A stretch of 61,669 nucleotides of DNA, the filler included, from Dirinaria sp. TL-2023a (lineage: Eukaryota): NCBI GenBank assembly GCA_051941275.1. It is 4 parts of 4 records of this genome, joined end to end, with 100 filler letters (N's around TTAATTAATTAA, not from the genome) between each part and the next. Parts side by side here need not be neighbours in the genome. Positions count along the whole stretch, not along the records: positions 1 to 15,366 come from JAVEBF010000551.1; 3 more parts are not named here. One strand, given 5' to 3'. Below, in pieces: positions 1 through 46,361 of the stretch. Positions within the stretch are counted from its first letter, which is position 1. Each line of letters opens with the position of its first letter. The notes under the pieces were generated by a model. The model saw nothing but the letters and a program-made list of their open reading frames with translations. It was not told the DNA's origin and did not search any database. The translations under genes and the position numbers were made by a program.

Positions 1-1856
1 TCTCGCTTTCTATTACATTTAATGGGACCTTGCAGCCTGACTAGATGTTTGGGACAGAGAGAGATGAGATGCTTAAGCAATAAGTATGGACTTTTGAAGC
101 ATGAGAATGCACCGATGCCGCTGTAAATTGACATGCCAAGAAGACAGAAATCTGCCCCGACCTCACCCCTCATCGGGGCCTCGGGTGAGCGCCGCCTTAA
201 GGTCGCGCGATCTGGATGATCGTCGCGCGACCCTGGGTGATCCGGGGTGACCCCAAGTGATCCTGAGTGGCTGCGCCCCCTTCTTGGGGGTGAGATGCTA
301 CCCGATCGCCATTCTATTTGAGACCAGGTCCGCAGGTCTTTCGGACGTAGTGGATCCGCAGCGGTTAGCGAGACCGCCCGGCCGCATGTCTACTGAAAAA
401 GCAGCGATAATGGAAAATGATCTAATATCGACCTCAAACATATTCTTTTCTTCCTGTCTTCGTTAACAGTTTCTATTCCTTTGCCCTCTTTCCTTCGTTT
501 TTCTTCCCTCTTCGCTCGCACAGCTCACGCAGCTGTCGGTTCCTCCAGTACCGATTTAAGACTGTTCTGAATCCTCCTTCACGGCCCGTTTTCTACGCTA
601 TCTCTCAATCGCCGTCTCCTCATTGTTGCGTCTTCTACCGTCCAACCTAGTGTTGCTGGTCTCAATAGGAGATGCTAGGGTTTGGTCTTGTATAGAAGAG
701 GTCGGTCAAGGAACAACGGGTGTCTCTGTGATATAGTATATATCACGGGTAAAGGTACTTGGTACTTGTGACAGTAGGTACTATTGCAAGATGAGTATTA
801 AACACGATGCCAGAAGGGCGTCGTGTTGGGAGTCTATATACACATTGCTCCTACTCCTGCTCAGCTGTGGATTTCCCCTGCTCAGTTACTGATCAATCCG
901 TGCTCAGTTCTAATCAACCTCAGGGTCCACTGAGCAACCTGCATAACCCTAGATCAACCCTAGCTATTAGAGCGGGGTCCTAACACCATTCCCTCTCTAG
1001 TTTAGCTTCGTCTCGAAGCTTATATACTTAACTCTGCCCTTCTCCTCGTCATGGCCTTCCGTCATGTCAACTCGTAAACCTGAGTTCAGCAACGTTCGTC
1101 GCCATAGACTTACAGATTTTAATGAGCGCTGCGGTGATAATATGATTAAGAAGTGCTCCATCTGTGTTAAGCATTCTCGCAGTTGCAAGATGTGTATGTC
1201 ATGAACCTCACCTGGAAGCACCTTTGTGTGGTTAGGTGCCTGCCCTGGAGGACCGTGAAGGACCCTGATATTAAGGGGTTTTGCACTATTCCCTTCTAGG
1301 CGTGTTATCCGCAAACCCGACCCCCTATTCGTTGCTTGCACCTCCTGTCATGGTGCCAAGACCTCAAAATGTGTGGCCCTCCTAGGGAGTAGGGTGAGCG
1401 CCGTCCTACGATTAGCCGCCGCGCGCTCATATGTGATCTTTGGACTTTGGTGCTCCTGGTTAAGCTGCTTCCTCTATCGTAAAATACGCATTCATGCGCA
1501 TGAAGGTTTTGGTTAGGGTTTCACTACCTAACGTTTTGTCTGGCGGCCCATTCTCTAGATATTCAGGTCGCCTCCGCACTCAGGATACCTGGGAGATGAA
1601 CATTCCACACATCGCGATTCCTGCTGCGTGGAATTATACATATGCGTTTGCAGCATCGAAAGCACTTGGGGTGGACCTGGTGAAATACGGCTCGGTTCCC
1701 TTTCTCTCTCTCCATACTCGGTGTTCAGTTGAGTAATCTCTACTTGATATCTAATTTCAATCTAATTTCAATCTGGCCCCTAATATTCTAAAACTCGCTC
1801 GTTTCTAAACAGAACAGCGGATCAGCCTGGACCACACTGCTAACACTCGTTCCATC

Positions 1857-3901
1857 CTAAGGCCTCGCATCACCAATGGCAAGTACACTGTCCCATCGAT
1901 CAGAAGCAGTAAGAAGAATGTTCGGGATATGTCTCTCGCGTTGCTTTGTGCAGATTGATTAGCATAGACATTGTGTAACGACGAAGAACCTTACAAAAGC
2001 GTTGGAATCACCGGTCTCTTCGTACTATATGACAGGAACTTTTAGTCATCTCGATATCAGTTGATCTGCGGTTAAGAGGTGCTCTTACGTCGTTATATGC
2101 CCCTGACATTCTTTGACTCAGAAAACATTTGAACGGCATCATATCCTGCAGGATATACTCGTACAAGTTCTTTCCCGCCACGTCCGTGGCTGGTTTCAAG
2201 ACTGCGAACAACTCGTTGCGGACAATGCTCCATCCATCGTGCCCGTCTAATTTCAAGGCATAGAGGAGGTTTCCGATATGGTTCTGAATGAGAGCATGAT
2301 GAATCTTGGCCCAGACGCTTTTCAGATCATTCGTGCATCCCGGCGAAGTCACACGCAAGTTGATACCCTGTCGTTGCAATGTTGGAATATGGAGCTTCAC
2401 GCCTTCAAAATCGCGAATAGCAAATCCTCTGATCTGTCGAGACCGAAAACAGACGCGCATCAAGGTGTTTTGCCCATGAGCCTCGAAGCCAATCCCGTAC
2501 TGCAAAAGCGGTGGCAGCAGAAGCTGTAATAAGACGGAAACATATCTGCTCAACTTGTGATCAAGATATTTTCATGCGATCTTGATGACGAGTGAACAAA
2601 CCTCATAAACCAGTCTTGCTTCTCTTCAATCGTCTTGAGATGAAACACGATTTCCGCATGTGTATAGTTCGAACCAAGAGGTCGCTCCCCAAGTGCTCCC
2701 GCTATAATAAGTGTCTCACCATTTGCTCGCGCTCGTGGTTCCAGATCCTCTCGAATGATACAGGAAAGATTCCGTGCGATATCTTCGTCCTCCTGAGCCC
2801 CTGCTACCGCAGCAATCTCTCTGAACAGCCACAACTCCTCAGGCATTAGACTATACAACTGGTCTCTGACGATCTGACCTCCCAGTGTTTGACAGGGCCG
2901 GATCGCCCGGACATCTGAACCAATTTGGCAGGCAATGGAAAGCTTCAGATGATACGGAATGGCGAGTTCTGGTCGCAGGGTGAGAGTGCGCATCGAAGCC
3001 TGGGTGTCGGCACATTCCGCAATGGACTTGACAAGGATTGTGCTTGGGAAATAATGATAAACACATGGTAATTGGAGACTCAGACATGGAATAATAACTC
3101 TATCGTCGGGAGGATTCGCGATTCCTAATCGGGCCAGCAATGGTTCAAGCGTGTTCTCAAAGGGACCGAAAATACGCATCTCCGTCTTCAAGACTGATAC
3201 GAATGCCATCTTCGGTGATAGCATTTCCGGGAGGTCCTTGGGCGTCACAGGCTCCATCGGTGGCTGGGCACGGCATAACCGATGAAACTGCTTGCTATTA
3301 GACATACGAATTGTATATATTAGGCTCACAGAATCCGTACCGGATGAGTCGGGTGACCCAGAACTAGCGCTCTTTCCCACATGATAGACGGTGAAATTAG
3401 ATGTATCGGTCGTGGTGAGGAATGTATGTCCAACCATCGCTCTGTAGCTTTTCCTTCAGTAAAGCGAATACAGAAAGCTGACATGATATAGAGACCTTGA
3501 TTTGCGACGCTATTACGCATTTCTGCAGCCATCTCCTCCATGACCGGCTCGTCCACCTTGACCGAGAATATATGACGGTTTAGGAATCGAAATACAACAT
3601 CGGGAGCTAAAAGCTCCTCTCGGGTGTCCTTGTCAATTATGATAATCGGCGGCCGCAGCATCTCAGGCCGAATGAAGGAAACAACTTGACCTTTGTGACT
3701 ATAAACACATGCATTCGATGATAATGTGACTTGCACACATCTCTCCGTTCGGTGTGAGCCCCCTCGTATGCTGAACAAGCTGATGCATGACTGCTCCAGA
3801 GAATCAACTGCCGCACCGACTAGACGCTCGTTCACGATATGGGATAGTAGACGCTTCGTCGTCTCAACTAGAGCTTGCTCGTGTGTCGAGTGAGGCATCA
3901 T
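1857..3901 (-). CDS. IucA/IucC-family NRPS-independent siderophore (NIS) synthetase-like amide ligase, AnkE-like; multi-exon
   Basis: Exons from ORFs 3326-3901, 2550-3437 and 2008-2553 join through GT-AG introns. NIS motifs are present: ETTKRLL..VNE, GHPTHP, QASMRT, HLKLS, EAHGQN, IRDFEG. The last exon reads QRERHIPNIL..., with a TAG stop at 1857-1859. Confidence 0.88.
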
Positions 3902-4433
3902 GGCGAGGAGTATTGTATAATATTTCAGATCTCATCCATTTGCGGACCTACCTTAGTATTTGCTTCCTAGACGAGGGGCAGAGCACTGGAAGAGTGTGGG
4001 AATTTATATGCGGGGCATGTAGCAGTCAAGCAAGGTAGAACGCACGCATACAGTAAGCTAGGCGTGGATGGGACATACATCTAGCGTACAATTCCCGCTA
4101 CTACACTACACGTGTCCTGACATAATGTCATGCACTCTTATGTCGAGAATTTTTTATACGCTCCGCGAAAAACTTAACATACTCTCACCGATCCCAACAC
4201 ACCGCGGGGATAGTTTCCGTGCCTTTACAGACGGTGATGCGCCGCTCATAATGGCATAAGAAGGCTCTACGGAACACAGACAGGACCAAAAGCGCTGTAG
4301 GCGAAACTACTACTCATCTCACGCGTTTACACTGAAAACAGCCTCGATCTCTAACTTTACTTATCCACGGCTTGTACCTCTTCACATCCTGTCGTATTCT
4401 AAAAACCACGATCTCTTCAATTCGGTCGGCAGA

Positions 4434-6441
4434 CTAGGCCCAACGATCGTGCACAATCTTAACTTTTACCGGAGAATTGATGATTGGTGCGAACTGATCC
4501 GTAATTTGCATGTCGGACTCGGTAGTCTCGAATAATTCCATTTCGAAGCGCGAGAAGAAGACAGCCATAGTGGCGTAGAGCTCCATGTATGCAAGGCTAT
4601 TGACTCTTAGTCATGCGTCTTGAAACATATTACTGCAGAGGAACATACTTGGTAGCTATGCACTGGCGACGCCCTTTACTGAATGCAACGGCCCATTTCT
4701 GCAGATTCTGCGCCTCGGTGCCCATCCAACGCTCCGGGATGAAAGCATTGGGTTCTGGGAAGATCTTCTCGTCACGTTCTATCACAGGGTGCACCATTGA
4801 AATGATTGTCTGTTGTGAGGTTAGAATTTCGGCCCTTGCTTGGAAATGCTCAGACATACCCCTCCGGCAATCTGATAACCTCCAATCTCTATTCCGTCCT
4901 TGGGTACAATCCGGGGGAGACACCCAGGCACTGTATTGCTCAATCGAAGCGTTTCCTTCACAACGGCAGTCTAAGTATCAAGGGTCAACGACACATCAAG
5001 GTTACAGCACGAATTTGACGCACCAAGTAGGGCAAGGCCATTATCCTTCGGTGATCAAATTCCTGGATGAACGGCTTCGCTTCAAAGAGCTCTGCTTCCA
5101 ATTTCGCCTTGACTTCAGGATTGGTAAGAAGAAAGTATGTCGCAAAAGACAACACGTAACTGGTCGCCTCCATCCCAGCGACTATATAGTTGAAAACATC
5201 ATCGAAAAGCGGCGCAAAATCCAGTGGGGCCCCGGTTTTGCGTCTCGATTTTACGATCAGATCGAAGAATGTATCCTGGCCGTCGGGCTGCTTGCCTGAA
5301 TCATGAGCTAGAACTGCTTCATCCAACCACGACTTGAAAATCTGTTTACTAGTTACCCTCTATTCCCCAGAGAGACGAGAAAGTGGTCTAACAAGGACCA
5401 ACCTTTTGATAGCCAATTATCCCCGGTTGTATCCAGTCAACCACAAAGGCCGGGAGCGATATAATTGCCCAATTGACCACACTATAATAAATTCCTTCAA
5501 GTCGAATTAGTCGACCTTTCCTTCAGTGGAAGGTCAAGCCGTATGTACTCAGCCATGTAATGCCGGTAAACTTGTCGACACTACGCATCAACGGATGATA
5601 GTGATCTGCGTCTGCGCCAGGCGCACCGATCAAACCAAGGGATTTTCCAAACAAGAGTTGGCACACCATATCTGCCTAGTGCGGTCTATCAGCCCAAACC
5701 GTTTATACAACCGAGGATTAGATATAGCTACCGCAATTGCACGATAGACTCGCTGAATTACTGTGTGTTTTCCGTCCTTCCCTTGACGGGCCATCGACGC
5801 CGCCGCCTTGTCCAATTCCGATGCTATGGCCGGACCCAGACTGTCCACTGCCTTCCGGGAAAATAATGATACCACGGTATTGCGGTACATTTTGTGCTCT
5901 GCTGGATCGCAGATAGTGAGGATTGAGCCATCGATACCGAGTTTTTTATAGAAGGTGTGTGCTTTGGCAAAGTCTGTACCCGAATCGTAGATTCTATTAT
6001 CAGAGAGTCAATGACACATATCAGACCTAGTGACAGGGTGAAAAGCAGACGCGTGATAATAACTCGGATCTCCAATATGGACGTGATCAGTAGCGATACG
6101 AATCACCGGGGAATATGTATGTGCGTTAGTGATAATCATGAGGCCATGGCTGTTCACTTACTATATTGGCTGTGCATAGGGATCAATCTCTTAAAGTATC
6201 CATCACCTATGATGTTGTAGAAGGCTTCATATAAATGGCTTGCCGCAGCTACTTTGGGTCCTGGGATCCCGCTCAATTTGTGGAAGTAGACACGACGGAC
6301 ATAGTTGCAGAGGAGGCACACGAGGGCTATCAGACCAAGAGCCAGTCTTGGAAATCGAGTCACCGGGATTGAAAGATTGTCTTGCTGTAATATGCCCTTC
6401 CACTTGCCAGACATGATCGATATGGTATTGATTAGGTCCAT
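4434..6441 (-). CDS. Cytochrome P450, AnkB-like cluster tailoring enzyme; multi-exon
   Basis: N-terminal TM segment followed by IPGPK, I-helix AGMEAT, ETLR (ExxR) in the exon near 4950, PERW, and heme motif FSKGRRQCIA. The last exon LAYMELY...DRWA* ends at 4434. Confidence 0.92.
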
Positions 6442-7180
6442 GATCACACGTAGAATAACCTGAGGTCAGAATATAGGTGTTATCCTTCTTGATGTAGCCC
6501 TACCCAAGAAGTTTCCTGTATCACATCAAAAATCATGGGGATCTAATCCACCTGCAGTCCAAAGGTCGGCAGAAAGCTGCACTTTGTTTTCGTTTCGATG
6601 GTCGACAGAATTTGCGCAGTCACATCGGGCAAGCAGATTTAGCGTTTGGACATGCCTGTACGGGGTGTATATATGCCTTCTTTCTACGCTAAACATGCAT
6701 TTTTAATCCTGCACACTAGTATGCTGGTAGTTAGTCTTCGGGCCGTGCGCATAAATCGTTGCACACGGACTTCTCCGAGACTCAAATCATCATTGTATAT
6801 TGGTTTGAAAACTTTAGTCTTGAGGCATTAAAAGCACCGTTTCATTCGCTGGCTCTGTCCTCTAACGTTGACACACCTTTGCTTTAGTGTCGGGTACGCT
6901 TGTGCTATATGTAGCTATTCGCTTTGATGGAACACTTAAGCATTAGGATCTCGATAAGGTATCTTTGGACAATCACATCATTGTTCTAAGGTAAGAGGTT
7001 GTAATCTTGAAATCGTAGTTAAACTAATACCGTTGTCTTGATCAGGCTTGTGCATGTCCAAGAACTCCGCGGCACGGGAACACGAAAGATGACCCTACCT
7101 AGCGCATCAGAAGGCCTTTCAACTTTTCCTAGACCATATGAGGAGAACTTTTGAATTTTACCTAGACCGCATTAGGACGC

Positions 7181-8824
7181 TCACTGACTTGACTGACAGC
7201 AAGAATCAGAAATATTGACCGCTGAATCGACTAAGGTTCTGCTTTCTATAGAGCCTCTGGCTATACACACATCCAGTTGCTTGAATTGTTGTGTACGTGG
7301 ACCATTCTGTGAGCCAAGTTTTACTTCCGAAAAAAGCCTTTCCAACACCGCACCGGCACTCGATCCATAGAGCTTGCTGATCACATCAAAAGGGTCGAGC
7401 TTGTGAGATAATCCTGCGTGGGCTTCATCACTCATATCTCGGCTGGGTGGGAGCCTCGTGCATACGCCCATGGTTGGTCTTTCTGGAGATGGATCGTCGA
7501 GATACAAATTTGACCCGCTTTGGTTCCTGCTGATGAATACTCGTCGGCAGAGGTACACTTCCAACAAACTGAATGTAACTGGGTATTTGGAAGACAGCGC
7601 ATTCATTCTTTTCAGGACTTTTTGTGCTCGGGAGTAAATCCGACGCTCGACCCCGTCATCGATACCAATCAGTAATCGTCTTAGAGCTGTTCTCGCTATT
7701 GAGGATGATCTAGCCTTTTCGTTGTTGCGGGTAATATTGTTGCTCTCCACTAGAGCTGGTCTTACTACCTGAAAGACGTAGAATAGGTGTCCAAAGGATT
7801 TAAAGTCATGCGGCTTTTCCTTCTCCGGGATAAGGCAGAAGAAACCGGCCCATATAGGGTCGTAGGTACTCAGAGAGTGTAGGATGGAGTCCAAGGATGG
7901 TAGTACCCCTTTTACGAGGAATTGACGGAGGATACAACATACCCAGTCCGCCGAAGGAGATACTCGAACTTCAAATTCACGAGTCAGGATGTCCCTTTGT
8001 GACAGCTTGTAGTTGATATAGCGGCGAAAAACACCTGCAATTTGTTCGTGACGCTTCTCTACCGCTTCCATCCACTGCAAAGCTTGTTGAAAGGTGCAAT
8101 ATCCATCCCGCAGGCGCTGGTCTATGGACTGATAGTAGTGGAAGCTTGGGATATCCAGACAAAGGTTGAGCTGGCGCCCATGGTCTTGATGTGGTGTGGA
8201 TGTACGGCTGAGTAATGCCAAAAAATCCGCGATCACCGGGGCGGAACGGGCTATGTATTCCACTTCGTAAAGTGTTGGTCCAGCATATTGAAGTTTCTCT
8301 ATGTCAATGGGTCCGCCTTGAGGGATGCTGGATTGAAGGATCCGGGCGGAAAATAGGCACATGCCGGTAATGATGGTGAATTCGCCCTTGTAGAAGTCAT
8401 CCGGTACAATTTGGGCCATAGGACTCGAGAAGTGCAGGTAATTGGTGGAAGTCAACGCGAATCGCTTGAGTCCTGGAATACAGAAGTCAAACCGAACCTT
8501 TTCGAACCAAGTAATGCCCTCCGCAATGCGTGCAGGCCCTTCACAGGGTGACCCTCCCACCAGACCACTGTCAGTCACTCTGATCATCGTTGCCTCTGTG
8601 TGACGATGGTTGATCAGCTCAGCGGCTCTCATGGCGACCTTGTGTCCTTTGTAAACGGCCTTGCCATATTTCGCGTCAATAGTTTCATCGCTACATGATG
8701 AATGGAAATATCCCAGGATTTCTGACGAGCATTTCTTAGTGCAGAGTTCGACATCATGAAATGAGATGACGGCCGACTCTCCGGATTGACTCTGGATATC
8801 TGCAATGAGGACTGGTGTTTCCAT
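7181..8824 (-). CDS. Putative fungal tRNA-dependent arginine-containing cyclodipeptide synthase (RCDPS, AnkA/AvaA-like)
   Basis: Continuous 547-aa ORF with no recognisable classical domain. It carries TIITGMCLF, PTLYEVEYIAR, LDIPSFHYY and a C-terminal DDGVE (DDxxE) motif at 7646-7660 followed by RRIY. Size and neighbours (P450, NIS, PLP enzyme, OMT) match the ank cluster. Confidence 0.8.
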   Translation of the reverse strand: METPVLIADIQSQSGESAVISFHDVELCTKKCSSEILGYFHSSCSDETIDAKYGKAVYKGHKVAMRAAELINHRHTEATMIRVTDSGLVGGSPCEGPARIAEGITWFEKVRFDFCIPGLKRFALTSTNYLHFSSPMAQIVPDDFYKGEFTIITGMCLFSARILQSSIPQGGPIDIEKLQYAGPTLYEVEYIARSAPVIADFLALLSRTSTPHQDHGRQLNLCLDIPSFHYYQSIDQRLRDGYCTFQQALQWMEAVEKRHEQIAGVFRRYINYKLSQRDILTREFEVRVSPSADWVCCILRQFLVKGVLPSLDSILHSLSTYDPIWAGFFCLIPEKEKPHDFKSFGHLFYVFQVVRPALVESNNITRNNEKARSSSIARTALRRLLIGIDDGVERRIYSRAQKVLKRMNALSSKYPVTFSLLEVYLCRRVFISRNQSGSNLYLDDPSPERPTMGVCTRLPPSRDMSDEAHAGLSHKLDPFDVISKLYGSSAGAVLERLFSEVKLGSQNGPRTQQFKQLDVCIARGSIESRTLVDSAVNISDSCCQSSQ

Positions 8825-9289
8825 TGATTCTCTGCTTCTGCCCTAGGCAACAATATCGAATAACTCTATACCTGCTGTTTGTACAAGTTCCCAGGTTGCA
8901 TCGGCTCCCTTTCATCTTGCCCTTAAAGAACGCTAATCTGAGATCGGCACCCGAACCGTTAGAAAGGAATGACTCTGTAGTGAGACCCTGCATAGAGTCA
9001 ATTTTTGTGACAAATTGCCTCTATGCTACATAACCTTGCTCGCATTCGGAGTCACCGGAGTGGACATGTAGGCCGAAGACAGGGGACCCTGCACTGGCAT
9101 GTATATCTACGCTGGTTCCACGGGAGTACATCATATACGACTATGTCCGAGGGATATGCTGGAGGATGCTAGGTAAACTCATCTATTTGGGAATAGCCAG
9201 GAGATACGTATAGCTGGATGGATATTTAAGAATTGGATTTCTGGTCCATGAGAAGTGTGTTCCTTTCACCAAGCCCAGATTTTCACAAG

Positions 9290-10644
9290 ATGAAAGTCAA
9301 CAGTGCCAGCAAGAGTTATACTCGCATCAAGCAAAGATCCATCCCGGGCGTATGGATGAGATCTGGGACGTCAAAGGGTCTTTTCATCCGTAGAGAGCAT
9401 CTGCCAGAATCGCCAAAGGATTGGGAACCCATTTTGCTGGACGTTATGGGATCCAGCGACGGAAATCCACAACAAATTGATGGGATCGGAGGAGGGACGT
9501 CGACAACATCCAAGGTCGCTGTGGTCTCACAATCAACACATCCCGAGATAGATGTGGATTATACCTTCGTCCAAATCAACTCTTCAACTGGAAAAGCGGA
9601 GATGTGGGGGACGTGTGGGAATATGGTCGCTGGCGTTGGGCTTTTTGCTTTGGACGAAGGCCTGGTGAATCTGTCAGGCCAGCAGGAAATTGTAGGGCGA
9701 CGGCTTCCACTGTGACTGGGACTGCCACTGTGACTGAAACTGAAGAAAGGCGCTTATTGGTAATGCAGATTGAGATCAAGATTTTCGCCACTAACACAAA
9801 CCAGATGCTTAAGGTCACTGCCAAAGTTACGGCAGATGGCAAGGCGGAGGAAGGTCGAGACCACCGCATGTTAGCCAATCCGATTCCACCAGGAAGTCCA
9901 ATCAAAGTCACTTTTTGTGCGCCAAGCGGGAGCATCACCCGAGGACTCTTTCCATCTGGGGAATCGACCACACATCTCCCTATTGGGTGCCCGGACACCG
10001 GCGCTCCCCTCCTTGTCCGAGCTACCTTGATTGACTGCGCCAATCTTTTTGTCTTTGTGGATGCAGAATCGATGCCCTCACGATATCGCATCGAAGGCCC
10101 CTCCAGCAGAGCGTCCAAGGCGATTGTCGAAACGATCCGACGCAGAGCTTCGATCCACTTGGGGCTTTCCCGCACCTCAGACGAGGCTGCGCAGCGTCAA
10201 GGAATACCAAAGATCGCTATCGTCGCGTCTTCGGGCTCTTGGGCCAGCCGAGCGAGCTTGTCAACCTCGTCGGCAGACGTGGAGGTGACGGCATTCAGCA
10301 TGGGCAATTTGCATCCAACCTTCCAACTTACGGGAGCAATTTGCCTCGGAGCCGCCTTGAGTATGCCAAATACTGTTGCGTCAGACTGCTGGCGATCTGT
10401 CAGACCCAACACACCGCCTCCAGATAGCTCCGAAAGTCTTCTGGGGCGTACCGCCCCAGAGTCTAGAATGTGGCGCATCAAGCACCCTATGGGATGGATC
10501 GATTCTGAAATCTGTTGGTCCCGAAACGCGGGTGGGGAATTTACGATCGAGAAGGCGAGTGTTATTTGCACTGCTCGGAAACTCTTCCAAGGATCTGTAT
10601 TCTATCGCCAAAACTGCATGACCTGGCTTGAGCAGGAAAGGTAA
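9290..10644 (+). CDS. PrpF/AcnD-accessory family (methyl)aconitate isomerase, diaminopimelate-epimerase fold; 2 exons
   Basis: MRSGTSKG, QIDGIGGGTSTTSKVA, DVDYTFVQ, TCGNM (catalytic Cys), FSMGNLH and TARKLFQG. A phase-0 intron at 9692-9768 joins ORFs 9233 and 9604. An alternative ATG lies at 9248. Confidence 0.9.
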
Positions 10645-11964
10645 AAGTACTGTAGATGCTGCATACACCTCAGCACTACTTCGGCAAGTTGGTCATCGGG
10701 TCGCATATATGCATGAGGTATTGATGCTTTTGTAGATACACGTGGCATGAAGCATCGAAAGCACTTGATGTAGCTATGGCAAGTTGTAAAACCAGTGCTC
10801 CTCAGTATCTGTCTGATGTGACTATCTTCCCACAACAGCAAATCAGATCTTAGGCAGGGCTGAATCTACTTGGTAGCACATAGTCCGCGTACGAAGAGGT
10901 ATTGATTGGCCATCCGGACTGAATTTATACGGCGGCTATTTTAATGCCATAAGTCCTGATTGGCAAAATGCACGCTGAGACCGGGTCATTCAGGCGACTA
11001 CAGGCGAGCTTGGTTGAGCTCGGGCGTATCATGGGTACGAGTACTGTACGGATTACTCCGCATCTCGTATCAAATGAGCTGTGTCTGGATGATCATATTA
11101 TTGAAGTATGAGGAGGCATAGACATACATTGCATTCAATACTTGGTAAATACCTGAGGAAGGAAGGAAAAGGGGGATATTCTATGTAGCGGGATGGAAAT
11201 TCTGCAACGCCAAGACACTAACCATATCTGGTAAGATTGCCGAGACCAGCGCTATTGGAGCGCCTCAGACACACATTTCATGTACAACAACACATACTCG
11301 TATCTTATTTGCTGATCCTTTTAGGCGACATCTAGACTACTCTCTACATGTACATAAGGTAGCTAATCGCGCTACCTGAACGGCACTGGCGCCGCTAAAG
11401 TACCTAAGATAGCTTAGAGCTCAGGTACTACCGAGCTACCTTACCGCCGCCTTGGCAATGGGCGCTTCTCACCTACTTCTAGCTTTTTGCTTCCTGCTCC
11501 TCTTTGCTTCCTCAGAGCATATTATCACATTGAACCAATTCCTTCATTTGAATCCTTCCCGTGCATAGAGCTTTCAGCGCTAAGGTAAGAAGGCCGAGGA
11601 GGCTTGCGCTTTGCCGAGCCTGTCCGCCAAACTCCTCGTCGTCCAACTTTCACTTTAGCACTAAGGTGGGTTGCATGTAAGGTACGGGTATACCTACCTA
11701 CTACTACTAGTACCAACCGCGTATTTCCCCACATACCTGAATCACAACATTCAAACGGGGTCCCCGCAGCTAATGCAGCGATTAGTTGAAAAAAGCAATG
11801 ATCTCCGCCAAGACTCAAGATGGAATTCTAGTGTGGGGAAAAGAGTCCATCAGACGATTGTGTACGGAGGCAAAGCTCTGACGAATCTTCGAAAACTTCC
11901 AAATTCCGGCACTACTCAGCTTTCGCTACTGTTCTCGATCGGGATGACGTGATCGGTGCTCGCA

Positions 11965-12885
11965 TCAACCAAAATTGTCATTCCCACATTTCTTTTGCGA
12001 CTTCAACTTCACCAAGCTAAGCCCGTTGAATACCGGAAGCAAGATGACCTCCAAGCTAGGATGCTTGCACGGAATCAGCGATTGATCCATTGCGTTATGC
12101 CTCAATCCACCCGAAGCAAAGTAGTGGTCACTTACCTGCCGGGCCCATTTGTTGAACCCATCCACGCTCCTCGCTTGCTGAAGGTGGTGTCCCATCTCTG
12201 GCTCATCTGAAGCGGGGTTGCTGGGAGTCGTATCGGCCACGAGACCTTTATGGATAGCTAGTTATGACGTTAACTGATGCACTCTTAACGATGGATAGGC
12301 ATCCAATACTATCGTCGACAAGAACGATTCCATTTTCTGCAAGCAGACCTCTCTGGAGGATGATCTCGAAATACTCAATATACTCTGCTTTCCGAGCATC
12401 GATGTAGATGATATCAAATGGACCTTCTTCGATGCATTGCAAACTGTAATTCATCAACCGAAGATTCCTCTGTCCGGTCTCGTATGCTTCACTTACGTCT
12501 GAATTGCAAGGCCCTCCAAGAGATGAATCTTCCCTTCTGGATCGTACTTCCGGAAAGCAGCCTTGCATGCCTTAATCGAGCGAGGGCTAGCCTCACACGT
12601 CCAAACTTCCCCGCTAATGGACTTCATTCCTTCTTTCCATGCCAGAGCGCTATATCCCGTGAACGTCCCGATCTCAAGGACACGCCTCGCTTGACGGTCT
12701 CGGGCAAAGAAAACATAAAACTGTGCCTGAAGCGCGCCGCTCATCATCTGTGATGTGTCAAAATTATCGATGGTCCAAGCTTCCTGTTCTGCGAACATGG
12801 GATGGATATCGGTAGAATGACATCGGCAGTACTCGTCCACCGCGGCCGCGGTTTCCGGTGGAAATGGGAGGATGCTCTCAAACAT
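11965..12885 (-). CDS. SAM-dependent O-methyltransferase, CCoAOMT/COMT-like (Methyltransf_3), AnkF-like; 4 exons
   Basis: VDEYCRCHS, VLEIGTFTGYSAL, FDIIYIDARK, VDDT and EVILLPVFNGLSL across spliced ORFs 12493-13194, 12248-12568 and 11965-12240. The start is taken at MFESILP. Confidence 0.88.
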
Positions 12886-13548
12886 TGTGTACTTGGATAT
12901 AAATCTGCTGTTTGTGATGACAGAGGAACCTCCTACTTGTTGCTTACCTGCTACGCTGTCTATTGCGGAAGTTGAGGAGCCTAAGTCCGAAAGGAAACCC
13001 TTGCTGGAACAGCTGCAGGCCAGCCTTTTGAATGCGCTCGTGTAGGCATGCTGAAGGCGACAGCATGCGTGCCCAGGAGCATGGGTATGAGCATCCATGC
13101 TCGTTCGCATAGGGTTCTTAGTACGCGGCGACTCCGGCGTTCGACGATCGTGGTGGGTCAATTCGTTCTCATTGTACGCATAGCTTTCTACCAATCATCG
13201 AGCTTTAGACTGAAACGCTCAAGCCTGAAAAAAGGTTCGAAAGTTTACTTTTGCCAGAAGGTCTCCTGAGCAGAGGCTATGGTCAATGGTCCTGTTTTCT
13301 AGCTTCGCGATTTCTTGCCACCAATACAAGAGATTGTGAAGCTTTTCCGAAGCGGGGAAACCGTCTGTTGACGCACCTCGTGAAGACGAGACGGGTAGTC
13401 GGAAGGTGTCCGGCCATCGCCGAAAGTCTCCATACACGCGCTTTTAGCGTAGACTATGGGCGGATATGCCCGTCGCAAAGAATCAACAAAAAGGGAAGCT
13501 CAAAAGCACAGACCAATACTGTTAGACCATCGCAGATCCCATCCTCAC

Positions 13549-15366
13549 ATGATCAGGTTTGGGGTCCCCCTTGCAAACCACCCTTTACCCCCATGGGTGA
13601 TTAATAAGACAGAATACGTGTCTCCGCTCCTGGCGGCTACCATCAGTTCGAATTTACGGATTTTATCTAGTGGACACTCAAGGAAGAAAGACAACGCTCA
13701 CGGTGGATAATGGGGCAATACACATTTGAGAGATCCCGACCTTTGTGTGGGAACAAGACTCCCTTCGTCTCTCGATCATTGTTGTTGGGAGAGCCGATAC
13801 CACCTGATGACCCTCATGTATGTTGACGCCGTTCGAGTGATTATCTATCGAACTAACACTTGAACCGAATGCACGAGATAACAAATTTGTAGGCTTTGAG
13901 TGTTTCAATGCCAAGTTGGGAGTCCATACCCGCGTCCTTAGCTGGTGAAGAATGGACTATGGGCAAGATGCAGACAAGCTATCCCAGGTCTAGTTCGCAG
14001 ATATCAATTAATCATCAAACAGTCACTCTAACTTCCATTATATTAGATTCGATATTCACCGTTGCATCAAGCAGTTAATCGCCGCTGTTAGGGCAAGGCT
14101 CAAGTATTCGGCAGACATGGACTGTATGATTTTCCCCTCCGAAGAAGCTGCAGCGCGTTGCATGTCTACATTCAAGAACAAAGACTCAACTTTACCTCTC
14201 CGCTCGATCCGTTTCCTTTTATCCTCCCGAATTGATGCACCAGAAGTAGCTAAGTGGGCAAGCTTTTCTGCCGTGCTGTACCACCAAACCCTCGAATACG
14301 AAGCAGCTCAGTTCTGGGAACACTTTGGAGACGGCATTTCCAGCCGACACGCCCTCTTCTGCCTCGCACAGTTTCAATTCTTGGATTCTGAACCTGCGGA
14401 CTCCAGGACCGGGTTTTCGACGGCCGCCACAAGCTCGCATATCAGCTCAATGTCCTTCCCAGGTTGGACTAATTCGGCTTTGTGGGAGAAACGGTGCTGC
14501 CAATCTCTACTCGCAGAGTGTGCAACGTCCAGGGATCCACACCAGAAGCCTGTCAGCCCAGAAGATGTCTTCCTGTATCCCAATGGAATGAGCGCAATAA
14601 GCGCAATTGCACGGGGACTCGCTCACCAATCGGACAATTCCGAGGCTGTCATATATGGGTGGCCCTACGCCGGAACTGTTCCATGTATCAAAGCATGTGG
14701 ATACAGTCGTTTCGAAATGTATGGACACGGCACTGCAGAAGAGCTGGATCGACTGGAGTCCTTGTTGGCATCAGGCGCTCAGGTTGCGATCCTGTTCTGC
14801 GAAATACCATCGAATCCTCAGCTACAAACACCAGATTTACATCGAATTCGAGACCTCGCCGACAGATATCGATTTATTGTTGTTTGTGATGAAACGGTGG
14901 CAACGACCGTCAATGTGGATATCCTGCCCTACGTTGATGTCGTGATCAGCAGCTTGACCAAAATCTTCAGCGGGGCGTGTAATGTTATGGCCGGGAGGTA
15001 AGCCTCAACGAGCTAAAGCAATGGATTGGTAGTCTCTAATCCGATAGTCTTCTGCTCAATCCAAACTCGGAGCACTACGACCTGATCCGTTCCTGTCTGG
15101 AAGATCAATATGAGGATGTTCTTTTCCCCCAGGATGCAGTCACGCTAGCGCAAAACTGTTCCGACTTCATTCCCCGTGTGCGCCAATGCAACGAAACCGC
15201 CTTGAAAATTGCCAACATCTTCGCGGCTCATCCGTCAGTCGATCTTGTTTGCTATCCAACCACGGTATCAACATCGTCGCTCTACGAGCGATACCGTCGT
15301 GAAAAGGGTGGCTATGGGTATCTTCTCAGTATCGTTTTCCGCGAGCCGGGGAGTGCAGTCCGGTTC
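13549..15366 (+). CDS. PLP-dependent cystathionine gamma-synthase-like enzyme, AnkD-like; 3' end lost in the assembly gap
   Basis: LSVSMPSWE, SYPR, GDGISSRHA, VFLYPNGMSAI, FCEIPSNPQL, VVCDETV, PLP-lysine motif SLTKIFSG (14951-14962) and GGYGYLLS. The first exons and start are uncertain. Confidence 0.87.
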
Positions 15367-15466
15367 NNNNNNNNNNNNNNNNNNNNNNNNNNNNNNNNNN
15401 NNNNNNNNNNTTAATTAATTAANNNNNNNNNNNNNNNNNNNNNNNNNNNNNNNNNNNNNNNNNNNN
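15367..15466. other. Assembly gap with synthetic TTAATTAATTAA linker
   Basis: N-run / TTAATTAATTAA / N-run; the same structure occurs at ~30832-30931 and ~46262-46361. Confidence 0.97.
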
Positions 15467-15684
15467 TATTTGGGGGGCGGGGAACGGGGGCTGGGGGGCA
15501 ACGGAGATAGTTGAGGCAGTGATGGGATAGATTTTGATCTGGCTTTTGGTAAAGTTGAAGATAAGAGGTATCTCTGCTTTGAAGAAGCTTGTAGCCGCTG
15601 ATATATAGTTCTTGCAAATATTACGTACTTGTCAATTTTTCTTGTTCTTTCGTTCATCTCTTTAAAAAATAAATTTCTTGTCGG

Positions 15685-15721
<37 letters not shown>

Positions 15722-18700
15722 CATTCTTAAAATATTTCTTTACCACTGTTGTAACCGTGGTTGAGGAGAACACTCCTTTGTCAAATTACAAGTTACTGCA
15801 CAGCGCGATAATGGTCGGTATCGAGGAACAAGTGAGTAGAGCTTGAAAAATCAGATCAGCTTCAGACTAAGAACATGCTGACGAGAGATACGTAGAGCTG
15901 CTTCGAGATGTTTAAGACACTCTCGAGTCTGTCCTGTTTGGGCACTGGTTGCGAACGGTTTTCGTTAACTATGATTTTCGGACTCTAGATCTTTGGTATT
16001 TGGAACTGTCCGAACCCCTCTGAAGATTTTGGGTTTTGCTTACAGCAATGCGCTTTGGTGGATGTGCTGACTTTGAGGGGCTCTCAGAAAGTGTTGACAC
16101 ATGTTGGGTCCTTGATCAACTTCATGTAGACCCTTTTCTAAAAGTTTTGAGGAATTTGATTTTGCCGAAGCATTTTGCGGAATGGATCACTAGAGATGCT
16201 GGTGGACAGAAATAAGGTAGTCATGTGCCCTCCTAGCTCCTATTTCAACAAAGCAGATTCATTCGAGACCCCACTGGTTTAATTTTCCATCTTTCTCGCT
16301 ACGACCATCACAGTTCCGGTCGTCTGGTCTTCGACTGTGATGCCAATACAGTGAAGAGTAGGATCAATGTCCACAAGTATGTAGGAAAGCCAAGAAGGAG
16401 CCCGAGTAATTAGGCTGTCGTTCAGCAACGCGATAAGGATACCAAAAGGCTTGAAATTGTGATGCTGATTGAATCAATGGTAGAAGCACTAATTTGAGAA
16501 ACATCACCTTATGTGCCATCAGATTTGACTATCCATGTTCCAGAATAATACTGGGCGAAAGCAAAGGTGCAGATTTTCTTCAGCAGTCCTAAATGCTGCG
16601 GGGCCTATAGAGTCCTGGCACTGTAGTGACAGACATATATTGCTGGCCGCAGAATCAATATGCTCACATCATGATCTTTAAGTTCTGTGCCCCAGTAAAG
16701 AAAAGAAGGAATGAGACAACATCGTCCATGTAGACTCAATTGGCTTAAAGTTTGATGGAATCGCCCAGAAGTAAGGGCATGTTCTTGCGGATACCAACAA
16801 GGCAGAGAAAGACGGCCCAAACTTTTAAGACGAGCTGATCGAGCAGGACTCGGTCACAGGCGAGCGTGAGAACAAGGCATAGATCGAGCCTGAACACGCT
16901 CTCGAGATCCGCAATGCAAGGAACTGCTCACATAGGTTGGAGCATCCAAAAATTCCCGCAGGGAAGTGATCGATTGGCAAGCAATCCCTAACGGCTCGTA
17001 TGATAAGATCATGGGCCGCTGGGGAAAATCTATATTCTCTTCCGCAATCGGCTTGGCCATCCAACTGGATCAATTACAGTGAACGTCCTGAAATGGAATG
17101 ACAACGAATCAAGGGACGGTCAGCAACGTTCTCACGGATTTATCCCGAGTCATCCATAACAAATAAGCCATTGAGGGCAAGAATGTGAGGCCGAACCATA
17201 GCTCAGCAAAATTCACATACCTTACCTTACCAAGTGATGCAAATGACATTTATTGTGCGCTGCCATCATCAAATTGACACTGACTAGAAGATTAGAATCA
17301 ACTTCCGCTTTACCACACACATCTGACCTCTGCAGGTAATTAGACTGAATATCGAATTTCTTGCAGACTCTAATGCAGGTGTGTTGTTGACGCAATTGAC
17401 GTCACCTGCTCGCACACTCGATGTTCACCTCCCTGACGCACCCACCACGTTCATACGAGGAAATCCAGTGAAATTGTGAGATCTTTAAAGCTGGGGCTTC
17501 TGGATTTGCAAGCGTCAAAATTCGTACTAAAGCCAAAAGTATTATACGATGACAAATGAGAGGATAGGAAAAAAATTGGTCAAGGCTCGAGAAAATCCTC
17601 AGGAAATTGAGTGTGGTATGACACTAGTAACAGCAAAAATTTTGATAATGTGGCAAAGAACCTTCATTCAAAGATGAATGCAAAACAGCTGTGGCACCGC
17701 ATATGGCTCAAAAGGGTCTCAGTGGACGTAGCCGGATAGCTCACAAGATTACAGAATGTCGTGATCTTACTTACAGCTGGATCATTCAACCTGCAGCTTG
17801 TAATGTCGAGACGGATGATTGGTGCACAATTGAAACCTGCAGCTGAAGACCAAAGGTTTATGGCTGGGTCCGTACAGATCTCCCTCCCTTAAGCTTCTCC
17901 CTTTGCCTTTTGCTTCATGAAAACGCACCAAAATCTTAGTTATCTCGACAAATCACTCTCAGAGGGAAATTGGATATAGCTAAAGAGCTACATCTACACG
18001 ATCTTTAGATTTCAGAAAAGGTGGGTTCGAGACGAATGTTATAATGAGAATATACACATTAGCAAGGCGACTTTCGGAGGAGCTCAAAGGATCATTAGAT
18101 GGCAGTGGAAACGATAGCAAGGTCAACAGGCTTTTTCGCAAAGTGAAAGAAAAGGCCTCGTTGCCCACTTTAAAGCAACAGTTGGCCAGAACGGTCGGCT
18201 TGCAGGATAAGGGCATGGAAGGTTGAGTAGTGATATCTGATGATGAGACCTAAGATCGATGCGATGCGGCTGCAAGCGGCCAACCAGATATGTTGCATAA
18301 ACGACTTCGATCAGACTGGAGTTGATGCTTGTAAGACACACAGCAGATGAGGGTGGAGAAGCTGACAATTTAGATTGGATCATCTTGAAGAGCTTGAGGC
18401 GTCCCGGCGTCGCAATCGGCAGTCAGCAAATACCGCACCAAACGGCAGAGACCAGGTTCACCCAATTAAAACGATATCCACTCAAGCAAAGGCCAAAGAG
18501 TGACACCACCTTGATCATCAAATGAAGATGAAAAATTTCCTTACTGCTTGTGTTATGATTGGCTTGTCGTCATACCTAGCGCTTGATCAGCAGGGTGATC
18601 CTTGCGAATCTTGAGAGCGGGTGTGGCGCTCTTCTAGAAGACCCGTAGAAGGCGGGCTGGCGGCCCCAGATTTTCGGGGGCGACAGGCGCACGAACTGGA

Positions 18701-30831: not shown

Positions 30832-30931
30832 NNNNNNNNNNNNNNNNNNNNNNNNNNNNNNNNNNNNNNNNNNNNTTAATTAATTAANNNNNNNNNNNNN
30901 NNNNNNNNNNNNNNNNNNNNNNNNNNNNNNN
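30832..30931. other. Assembly gap with synthetic linker
   Basis: N-run / TTAATTAATTAA / N-run. Confidence 0.97.
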
Positions 30932-46261: not shown

Positions 46262-46361
46262 NNNNNNNNNNNNNNNNNNNNNNNNNNNNNNNNNNNNNNN
46301 NNNNNTTAATTAATTAANNNNNNNNNNNNNNNNNNNNNNNNNNNNNNNNNNNNNNNNNNNN
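46262..46361. other. Assembly gap with synthetic linker
   Basis: N-run / TTAATTAATTAA / N-run. Confidence 0.97.

Follow-up and report, generated by a model that had tools for sequence, protein, structure and literature searches.

A PrpF-family isomerase gene adjoining an AnkA-like cyclodipeptide synthase gene in Dirinaria: a candidate accessory enzyme of an ank-like cluster

Introduction

Gene clusters with an arginine-containing cyclodipeptide synthase (RCDPS) have been known only since 2023, and little of their tailoring chemistry has been explored. Considered here is such a locus in a metagenome-assembled genome (MAG) of Dirinaria sp. TL-2023a (assembly GCA_051941275.1), a lichen-forming Lecanoromycete. 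The analysed stretch of 61,669 nucleotides, filler included, referred to below as the window, contains at positions 9290-10644 a PrpF-family gene that is paired with an AnkA-like RCDPS gene. The locus is a variant of the ank-type cluster, and its PrpF protein is a divergent representative of a family already known. Among the papers listed in literature searches, none connects PrpF with gene clusters of fungi, with cyclodipeptides, or with enzymes of the NRPS-independent siderophore (NIS) type, and no cofactor-free isomerase of the PrpF type is reported from an RCDPS pathway.

In Aspergillus thermomutatus, the ank cluster, which makes the arginine-tyrosine compounds NK13650, consists of genes for a NIS enzyme, an ABC protein, a hypothetical protein (HP, AnkA), a pyridoxal-phosphate-dependent (PLP) enzyme, a flavin-dependent monooxygenase (FMO), a methyltransferase (MT), and an ATP-grasp enzyme (PMC11610942). 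In the extract of PMC12568646 on which we draw, the NIS enzyme is named AnkE and the ATP-grasp enzyme AnkG, and the NIS step is proposed to form an amide bond. Four of these seven gene types (RCDPS, NIS, PLP, and methyltransferase) are present at the Dirinaria locus, where the comparison was made at the sequence level for AnkA alone. The genes follow one another on the contig in the order NIS, P450, RCDPS, PrpF, O-methyltransferase, and PLP enzyme, so the Dirinaria cluster additionally has a cytochrome P450 and a PrpF-family gene, both unreported in ank. The initial annotation of the locus had stated that PrpF is not part of the described ank cluster, and the gene list of PMC11610942, which names no PrpF, bears this out.

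For the enzyme itself, the best reference is PrpF of Shewanella oneidensis (SoPrpF, a 2-methylaconitate isomerase; PDB 2pvz, 2pw0, and 5k87), in which substitutions of K73 or C107 abolish growth on propionate and an inter-domain hinge, I379-M380, has been named (Rocco 2017, PMC5690661, in extract). The closest functional analogy is Adi1 of Ustilago maydis (UMAG_11778), a fungal PrpF-family enzyme in a secondary-metabolite cluster. It is an aconitate-delta-isomerase working on cis/trans-aconitate in the itaconate cluster, where it hands trans-aconitate to the next cluster enzyme, and the cluster also has the Tad1 decarboxylase and the Mtt1 carrier (PMC4720413, in extract). The relatives characterised so far (PrpF, Adi1, Mii, and LigU) all isomerise unsaturated di- or tricarboxylic acids. 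The Dirinaria protein is likened to Adi1 by description and not by sequence; unlike in the U. maydis cluster, Tad1 and Mtt1 were not found on the Dirinaria contig, where the presumed consumer of the isomerised acid would be the NIS ligase.

Gene structure, fold, and catalytic residues of the PrpF-family protein

Two plus-strand open reading frames (ORFs; 9233-9715 and 9604-10644), lying in different frames, are connected by a 77-nt intron (Table 1). The spliced product of 425 amino acids is 100% identical to the database protein P0001 (junction ...GQQEI/IEIKIF...), which bears the NCBI name ‘MAG: hypothetical protein Q9191_004245 [Dirinaria sp. TL-2023a]’. The PrpF-family gene is intact and agrees with this independent NCBI gene model, and the presence of an intron shows that the gene is fungal and did not enter the MAG through bacterial contamination. 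An in-frame ATG located 41 nt upstream of the start (9249-9289) would extend the N-terminus by 14 residues (MRSVFLSPSPDFHK); as annotated, the N-terminus is basic and has no acidic residues.

The assignment to the PrpF family, made in the initial annotation by inspection, is confirmed by Pfam PF04303, which matches the exon 1 ORF with 141.4 bits and the exon 2 ORF with 110 bits (cut-off 27) and is also precomputed for P0001. The closest solved relative is SoPrpF (2pvz, E 1.5e-44), followed by PA0793, Mii, YbhH, and LigU, and a 16-sequence profile finds the solved PrpF-family relatives at E 1e-72 to 1e-89. The AlphaFold2 model of the protein (pLDDT 81.8, pTM 0.81) predicts a two-domain DapF-like fold. 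In Foldseek, the top matches of this model are all PrpF, LigU, Mii, and YbhH structures (query-normalised TM 0.62-0.77, E 1e-30 to 1e-34), and racemases and epimerases for amino acids, which share the superfold, rank lower, at TM 0.4-0.5. SoPrpF shares with the Dirinaria protein the Pfam family, the two-domain fold (TM 0.75-0.77), the catalytic Lys and Cys, and the motifs. The two differ in that the Dirinaria protein is 29% identical in the Foldseek structural alignment and has Cys in place of Arg382, and in that its gene is eukaryotic, with an intron, and has no acnD or prp neighbours that could be found on the contig. LigU, Mii, and YbhH have the same fold (TM 0.68-0.73), with the catalytic Lys and Cys aligned for Mii and YbhH; in contrast to the context of the Dirinaria gene, they come from bacteria, where they serve the catabolism of oxalomesaconate or methylitaconate.

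Both catalytic residues are kept. Lys75 and Cys109, the latter within GTCGN, align with SoPrpF K73 and C107, and all 16 fungal relatives compared have both of them. The initial annotation had recognised the cysteine, rightly, and had passed over the lysine. It had also presented TCGN as a departure from the usual NCGN, and this part does not hold: across the 16 fungal relatives, the catalytic Cys is preceded six times by T, nine times by N, and once by S, so TCGN is ordinary variation. The pocket motifs GTSKG, GGxTSxTSK, CGN, and TAR are unchanged, and 82 of the 96 columns conserved in at least 80% of 72 other family members are retained. Among NCBIfam models, only OMA_tautomer (NF033377, 211.5 bits) and prpF (TIGR02334, 183.7 bits) match at E <= 1e-5; the protein thus scores closer to the oxalomesaconate tautomerase than to PrpF, as does Adi1 in the extract of its description. 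Both scores are under half of the equivalog cut-offs (440 for the OMA tautomerase and 440.55 for PrpF), and therefore the protein is not an orthologue of PrpF proper or of oxalomesaconate tautomerase.

Departures from the family and phylogenetic position

One conspicuous departure is Cys401 (codon at window 10489-10491), a position that is Arg in 97% of the 72 other family members and in the solved relatives Mii and YbhH, and that equals SoPrpF R382 by alignment, two residues past the hinge. The Arg-to-Cys replacement is common to all five members of the nearest clade, i.e., the Dirinaria protein and its four closest relatives, and may mark a change of substrate, as judged from the alignment. 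The loop 164-172, for which the family pattern is G..I.GV, has diverged throughout the sub-clade, and the pLDDT of the model is low there. The exon 2 product also contains a weakly conserved 28-residue insert (~339-366), and Leu227 replaces the family Pro in the Dirinaria protein only.

When relatives of PrpF were sought with a profile, 1092 matches were obtained at E <= 1e-30, and the best 120 of these 1092 are nearly all fungal. A maximum-likelihood tree was calculated for 84 rows (22 close relatives, 36 named fungal, and 26 distant unnamed sequences) hand-picked from 311 proteins. In it, the Dirinaria protein falls inside an 11-row sub-clade with 100% support and a patchy distribution, whose named members are from Aspergillus aculeatus (ASPACDRAFT_1891250), A. 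tanneri (EYZ11_007142), Penicillium paradoxum (N7457_000535), P. coprophilum, Trichoderma austrokoningii, and Hirsutella minnesotensis (HIM_05655); A. tanneri has an additional copy in the main Aspergillus clade. The other Lecanoromycetes in the tree (Pseudevernia, Lambiella, and Xylographa) form a separate clade with 98% support, and grouping the Dirinaria protein with them is rejected by the approximately unbiased (AU) test (delta lnL 120.8, p 0.005), for a group that was defined after the tree had been inspected. The end branch of the Dirinaria protein (0.47) equals the tree median, so this copy shows no sign of decay. The picture is that expected of a specialised paralogue with patchy inheritance and not of the vertical housekeeping copy of the Lecanoromycetes; as far as a tree can tell, it favours recruitment to the cluster without proving it.

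Among distant relatives, P0061 (1072 aa) and P0070 (961 aa) are annotated with the PrpF domain behind a Zn-cluster transcription-factor domain, PF04082. These arrangements are either true fusions or merged neighbouring gene models, and they give a hint of other small regulated clusters with PrpF paralogues. The fusion partners of distant relatives (Fungal_trans, MaoC, and isochorismatase) provided no usable functional link.

Proposed role of the isomerase and alternative explanations

It is proposed that the Dirinaria protein would be a cofactor-independent isomerase, most likely performing a 1,3-allylic proton shift with Lys75 and Cys109 as the two bases, and that it might serve as a lineage-specific accessory enzyme of the ank-like cluster. 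It would isomerise an aconitate-type unsaturated polycarboxylic acid before the NIS enzyme ligates this acid to the amino-carboxypropyl arm of a modified cyclo-Arg-Tyr; in an alternative order of events, it could isomerise the acyl part after ligation. In either case, the resulting product would differ from the citryl NK13650 compounds. Yee and co-workers are said to have found in 2023 that the acid ligated by the ank NIS enzyme is citrate. The other five genes of the contig presumably account already for a citryl, O-alkylated, and methoxylated cyclo-Arg-Tyr, an assumption carried over from ank chemistry. Given that chemistry, PrpF is the only gene of the cluster without an obvious step. Since the relatives all isomerise unsaturated acids and Adi1 sets a precedent, an aconitate-type allylic isomerisation at the NIS step is the most economical explanation. 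Ank-type genes flank PrpF on both sides of one 15.4-kb contig, which was counted in favour of pathway membership, and the protein probably belongs to, or works in, the pathway of the cluster. We tentatively prefer, with confidence somewhat short of even, the explanation that it is an accessory isomerase specific to this lineage, with an unsaturated polycarboxylic acid tied to the NIS step as its substrate. The particular acid together with its link to the NIS step is suggested with a little more caution still. The initial annotation had been more specific, in that PrpF was thought to supply trans-aconitate or methylaconitate to the NIS ligase; this is consistent with the chemistry of the family, and the present analysis cannot tell whether it is so.

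Several observations weigh against an accessory isomerase at the NIS step. Besides the lack of a PrpF gene in ank, they concern mainly the conservation of the pairing, which the initial annotation had named as one touchstone of its idea and which did not reappear in the small sample available. Twenty-seven RCDPS proteins were aligned and JGI metagenome contigs were scanned with the alignment, which gave 13 loci; the window pieces of PrpF, NIS, P450, O-methyltransferase, and PLP were then compared with these loci by tblastn. PrpF was found in 0 of the 13 loci, which include 12 with a distant RCDPS (31-38% identity) and several that nearly duplicate one another, and whose flanks measure 0-10 kb; homologues of the NIS, O-methyltransferase, and PLP genes were likewise found in none of the 13. 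The sole close locus, L012 (RCDPS 55-67% identity, L012:1878-3576, apparently with two introns), lies on a contig of 3.6 kb and has a P450 homologue (L012:8-645, 54-62% identity) directly upstream of the RCDPS gene on the same strand, where the window has PrpF. A P450 gene beside the RCDPS gene both here and in L012 points to a P450-containing variant of the cluster in at least two organisms, with differing gene order. In A. thermomutatus, the contig with the PrpF homologue CDV56_106971 measures at most 86,909 bp and differs from that with AnkA (CDV56_108942), which has 169,864 bp, and the homologue falls in a different clade from the Dirinaria protein. Of 14 named species with an AnkA-like RCDPS match, only A. 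thermomutatus also appears among the best 120 of 1092 PrpF matches, and none of the six named sub-clade species is among these 14. Examples of the AnkA-like RCDPS genes are P. hispanicum N7459_009528, T. rugulosus TRUGW13939_01400, and F. falciforme NCS54_01094000. The absence of a second case of PrpF beside an RCDPS is a weak negative, drawn from metagenome contigs, the two A. thermomutatus contigs, and the lists of named species. In addition, a search for promoter words shared by four cluster intergenic regions, the one between PrpF and RCDPS included, revealed no excess over shuffled sequences (four 8-mers present in at least three of the four regions; shuffled mean 1.97, maximum 8). The contig that carries the cluster is MAG-derived, 15,366 bp long, and cut at both ends, the right end lying inside the PLP gene. 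Finally, the loss of the conserved Arg and the divergence of loop 164-172 make a classical tricarboxylate substrate less certain.

Many of these observations would be expected if PrpF were a bystander, that is, a paralogue with its function elsewhere in metabolism, for instance in the breakdown of organic acids or aromatics as in many fungi, in a cluster that makes an NK13650-type citryl compound without it. This is a serious alternative, even if it is on balance unlikely. Genes of the PrpF family abound in Pezizomycotina, where a genome often has several, the sub-clade occurs in species without an AnkA-like RCDPS match, and there is no conserved synteny with RCDPS; the ank cluster functions without PrpF, and for each other gene of the contig there is either a counterpart of ank type or an evident role, so that a product can be explained without PrpF. 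The relatives annotated as fused to Zn-cluster transcription-factor domains also hint at a place in other small clusters. However, the Dirinaria gene is embedded among ank-type genes on both sides, only 465 bp from the core enzyme, and the tree and the AU test speak against a vertical Lecanoromycete copy. Moreover, no second Dirinaria PrpF occurs among the best 120 of 1092 matches, in a MAG that may be incomplete. If PrpF is a bystander, then the locus amounts to no more than an ank cluster variant with a P450.

Other explanations retain the protein in the pathway or return it to primary metabolism. PrpF might have left polycarboxylates for scaffold tailoring, i.e., a double-bond shift or tautomerisation of a dehydro-diketopiperazine, or an alpha-carbon epimerisation, on a peptide-derived intermediate. 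The Arg lost in five of five nearest-clade members and the diverged loop are compatible with this on sequence grounds, and the predicted fold is common to the cofactor-independent epimerases and racemases DapF and proline racemase (Foldseek ranks 17-49). A P450 that might create an unsaturated intermediate adjoins the RCDPS here and in L012, and, as reported in the extract of PMC10156859, dedicated diketopiperazine stereoisomerases exist in bacteria. Against these points, the remaining pocket motifs are intact, and scaffold tailoring appears improbable. To our knowledge, there is no PrpF-family member that acts on peptides, which also counts against it. A variant of comparably low probability combines both lines: the Arg382-to-Cys sub-clade may have been re-tooled for secondary metabolism, so that it would act on a cyclo-Arg-Tyr intermediate or make an unsaturated acyl donor other than citrate for the NIS enzyme. 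A canonical role as 2-methylaconitate isomerase of the methylcitrate cycle or 4-oxalomesaconate tautomerase (GalD) of the gallate pathway is disfavoured and highly improbable. The only NCBIfam models matched are indeed those of these two enzymes; however, both equivalog scores fall far below their cut-offs, and Pfam searches of 92 large and 129 small ORFs revealed on the contig neither an AcnD-type aconitase nor any genes for the prp, gallate, or protocatechuate pathways.

If PrpF is a true enzyme of the pathway, a new p300-inhibitor scaffold resembling NK13650 would be indicated for a lichen fungus, and either NIS ligases would prove to use more acids, or the PrpF family more substrates, than known so far. 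If the sub-clade has been re-tooled, a new NK13650-type structure and the first PrpF-fold enzyme in the tailoring of peptide natural products could be expected. The locus is a concrete and testable lead built on sequence and a structural model.

Neighbouring genes of the cluster

The genes around PrpF are listed in Table 1. The divergent pairing with RCDPS under a promoter of less than 500 bp, as described in the initial annotation, is correct, with the interval measured between the start codons.

Table 1. Features of the cluster contig, in window coordinates
Feature	Position	Strand	Evidence or remark
NIS synthetase, ~3 exons	~2011..3901	-	PF04183 IucA_IucC + PF06276 FhuF
Cytochrome P450, several exons	~4633..6007	-	PF00067 on ORFs 4633-4977, 4988-5359
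AnkA-like RCDPS, 547 aa, single exon	7181..8824	-	47% identity to A. thermomutatus CDV56_108942
Divergent intergenic region, 465 bp	8825..9289	.	between RCDPS and PrpF start codons
PrpF-family gene, exon 1	9290..9691	+	134 codons; MRSGTSKG, GGGTSTTSK (Lys75), GTCGN (Cys109)
Spliceosomal intron	9692..9768	+	77 nt, donor GTAGGG, acceptor CAG
PrpF-family gene, exon 2	9769..10644	+	291 codons (to 10641) + TAA stop 10642-10644; C-terminal domain
Class-I (catechol-type) O-methyltransferase	~12248..13194	-	PF01596 Methyltransf_3, two ORFs; convergent with PrpF
CndF-like PLP-dependent gamma-replacement enzyme, cut by contig end	14117..15366	+	PF01053; CndF 8zif, E 8.1e-84

No Pfam family was matched by the RCDPS protein; in the 27-sequence alignment, its Cys156 and D389-D390..E393 (DDxxE), the catalytic motifs as named in PMC11610942, show no or almost no variation. 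The PLP enzyme has a very close relative in CndF, which performs gamma-replacement in citrinadin biosynthesis; this suggests the transfer of an amino-carboxypropyl group derived from O-acetylhomoserine. The middle exon piece of the NIS gene has no solved relative in the PDB at E <= 0.01. The Tad1 decarboxylase and Mtt1 carrier families are absent from the cluster contig by Pfam, and no FMO, ATP-grasp, or ABC genes were found by Pfam in window 1-15366, where the contig ends within the PLP gene. Since the contig is short and cut in that gene, the missing ank genes prove nothing. At the left end (window 1-2000), two minus-strand ORFs, 3-389 and 1000-1347, have no Pfam match.

Composition of the window

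The window is composed of four MAG contigs placed end to end and sorted by length (15366, 15365, 15330, and 15308 bp). They are joined by artificial linkers of the form N44-TTAATTAATTAA-N44 at 15367-15466, 30832-30931, and 46262-46361. Translated as a possible C-terminus of the PLP enzyme, window 15467-15798, beyond the first linker, contains stops. The linkers and the piece sizes indicate that the window is not contiguous DNA, and all statements on the cluster concern window 1-15366 only. In agreement with this, the protein database entries of both PrpF (P0001) and RCDPS (P0008) give ‘longest contig 15366’. A sugar transporter, a second P450, and CAP genes (20-30 kb) were considered as cluster members and rejected, as they sit on other contigs; by Pfam, the genes at 20-60 kb (these three, G-alpha, a flippase, and others) belong to unrelated contigs. 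The window is eukaryotic in character, with sparse ORFs and introns present.

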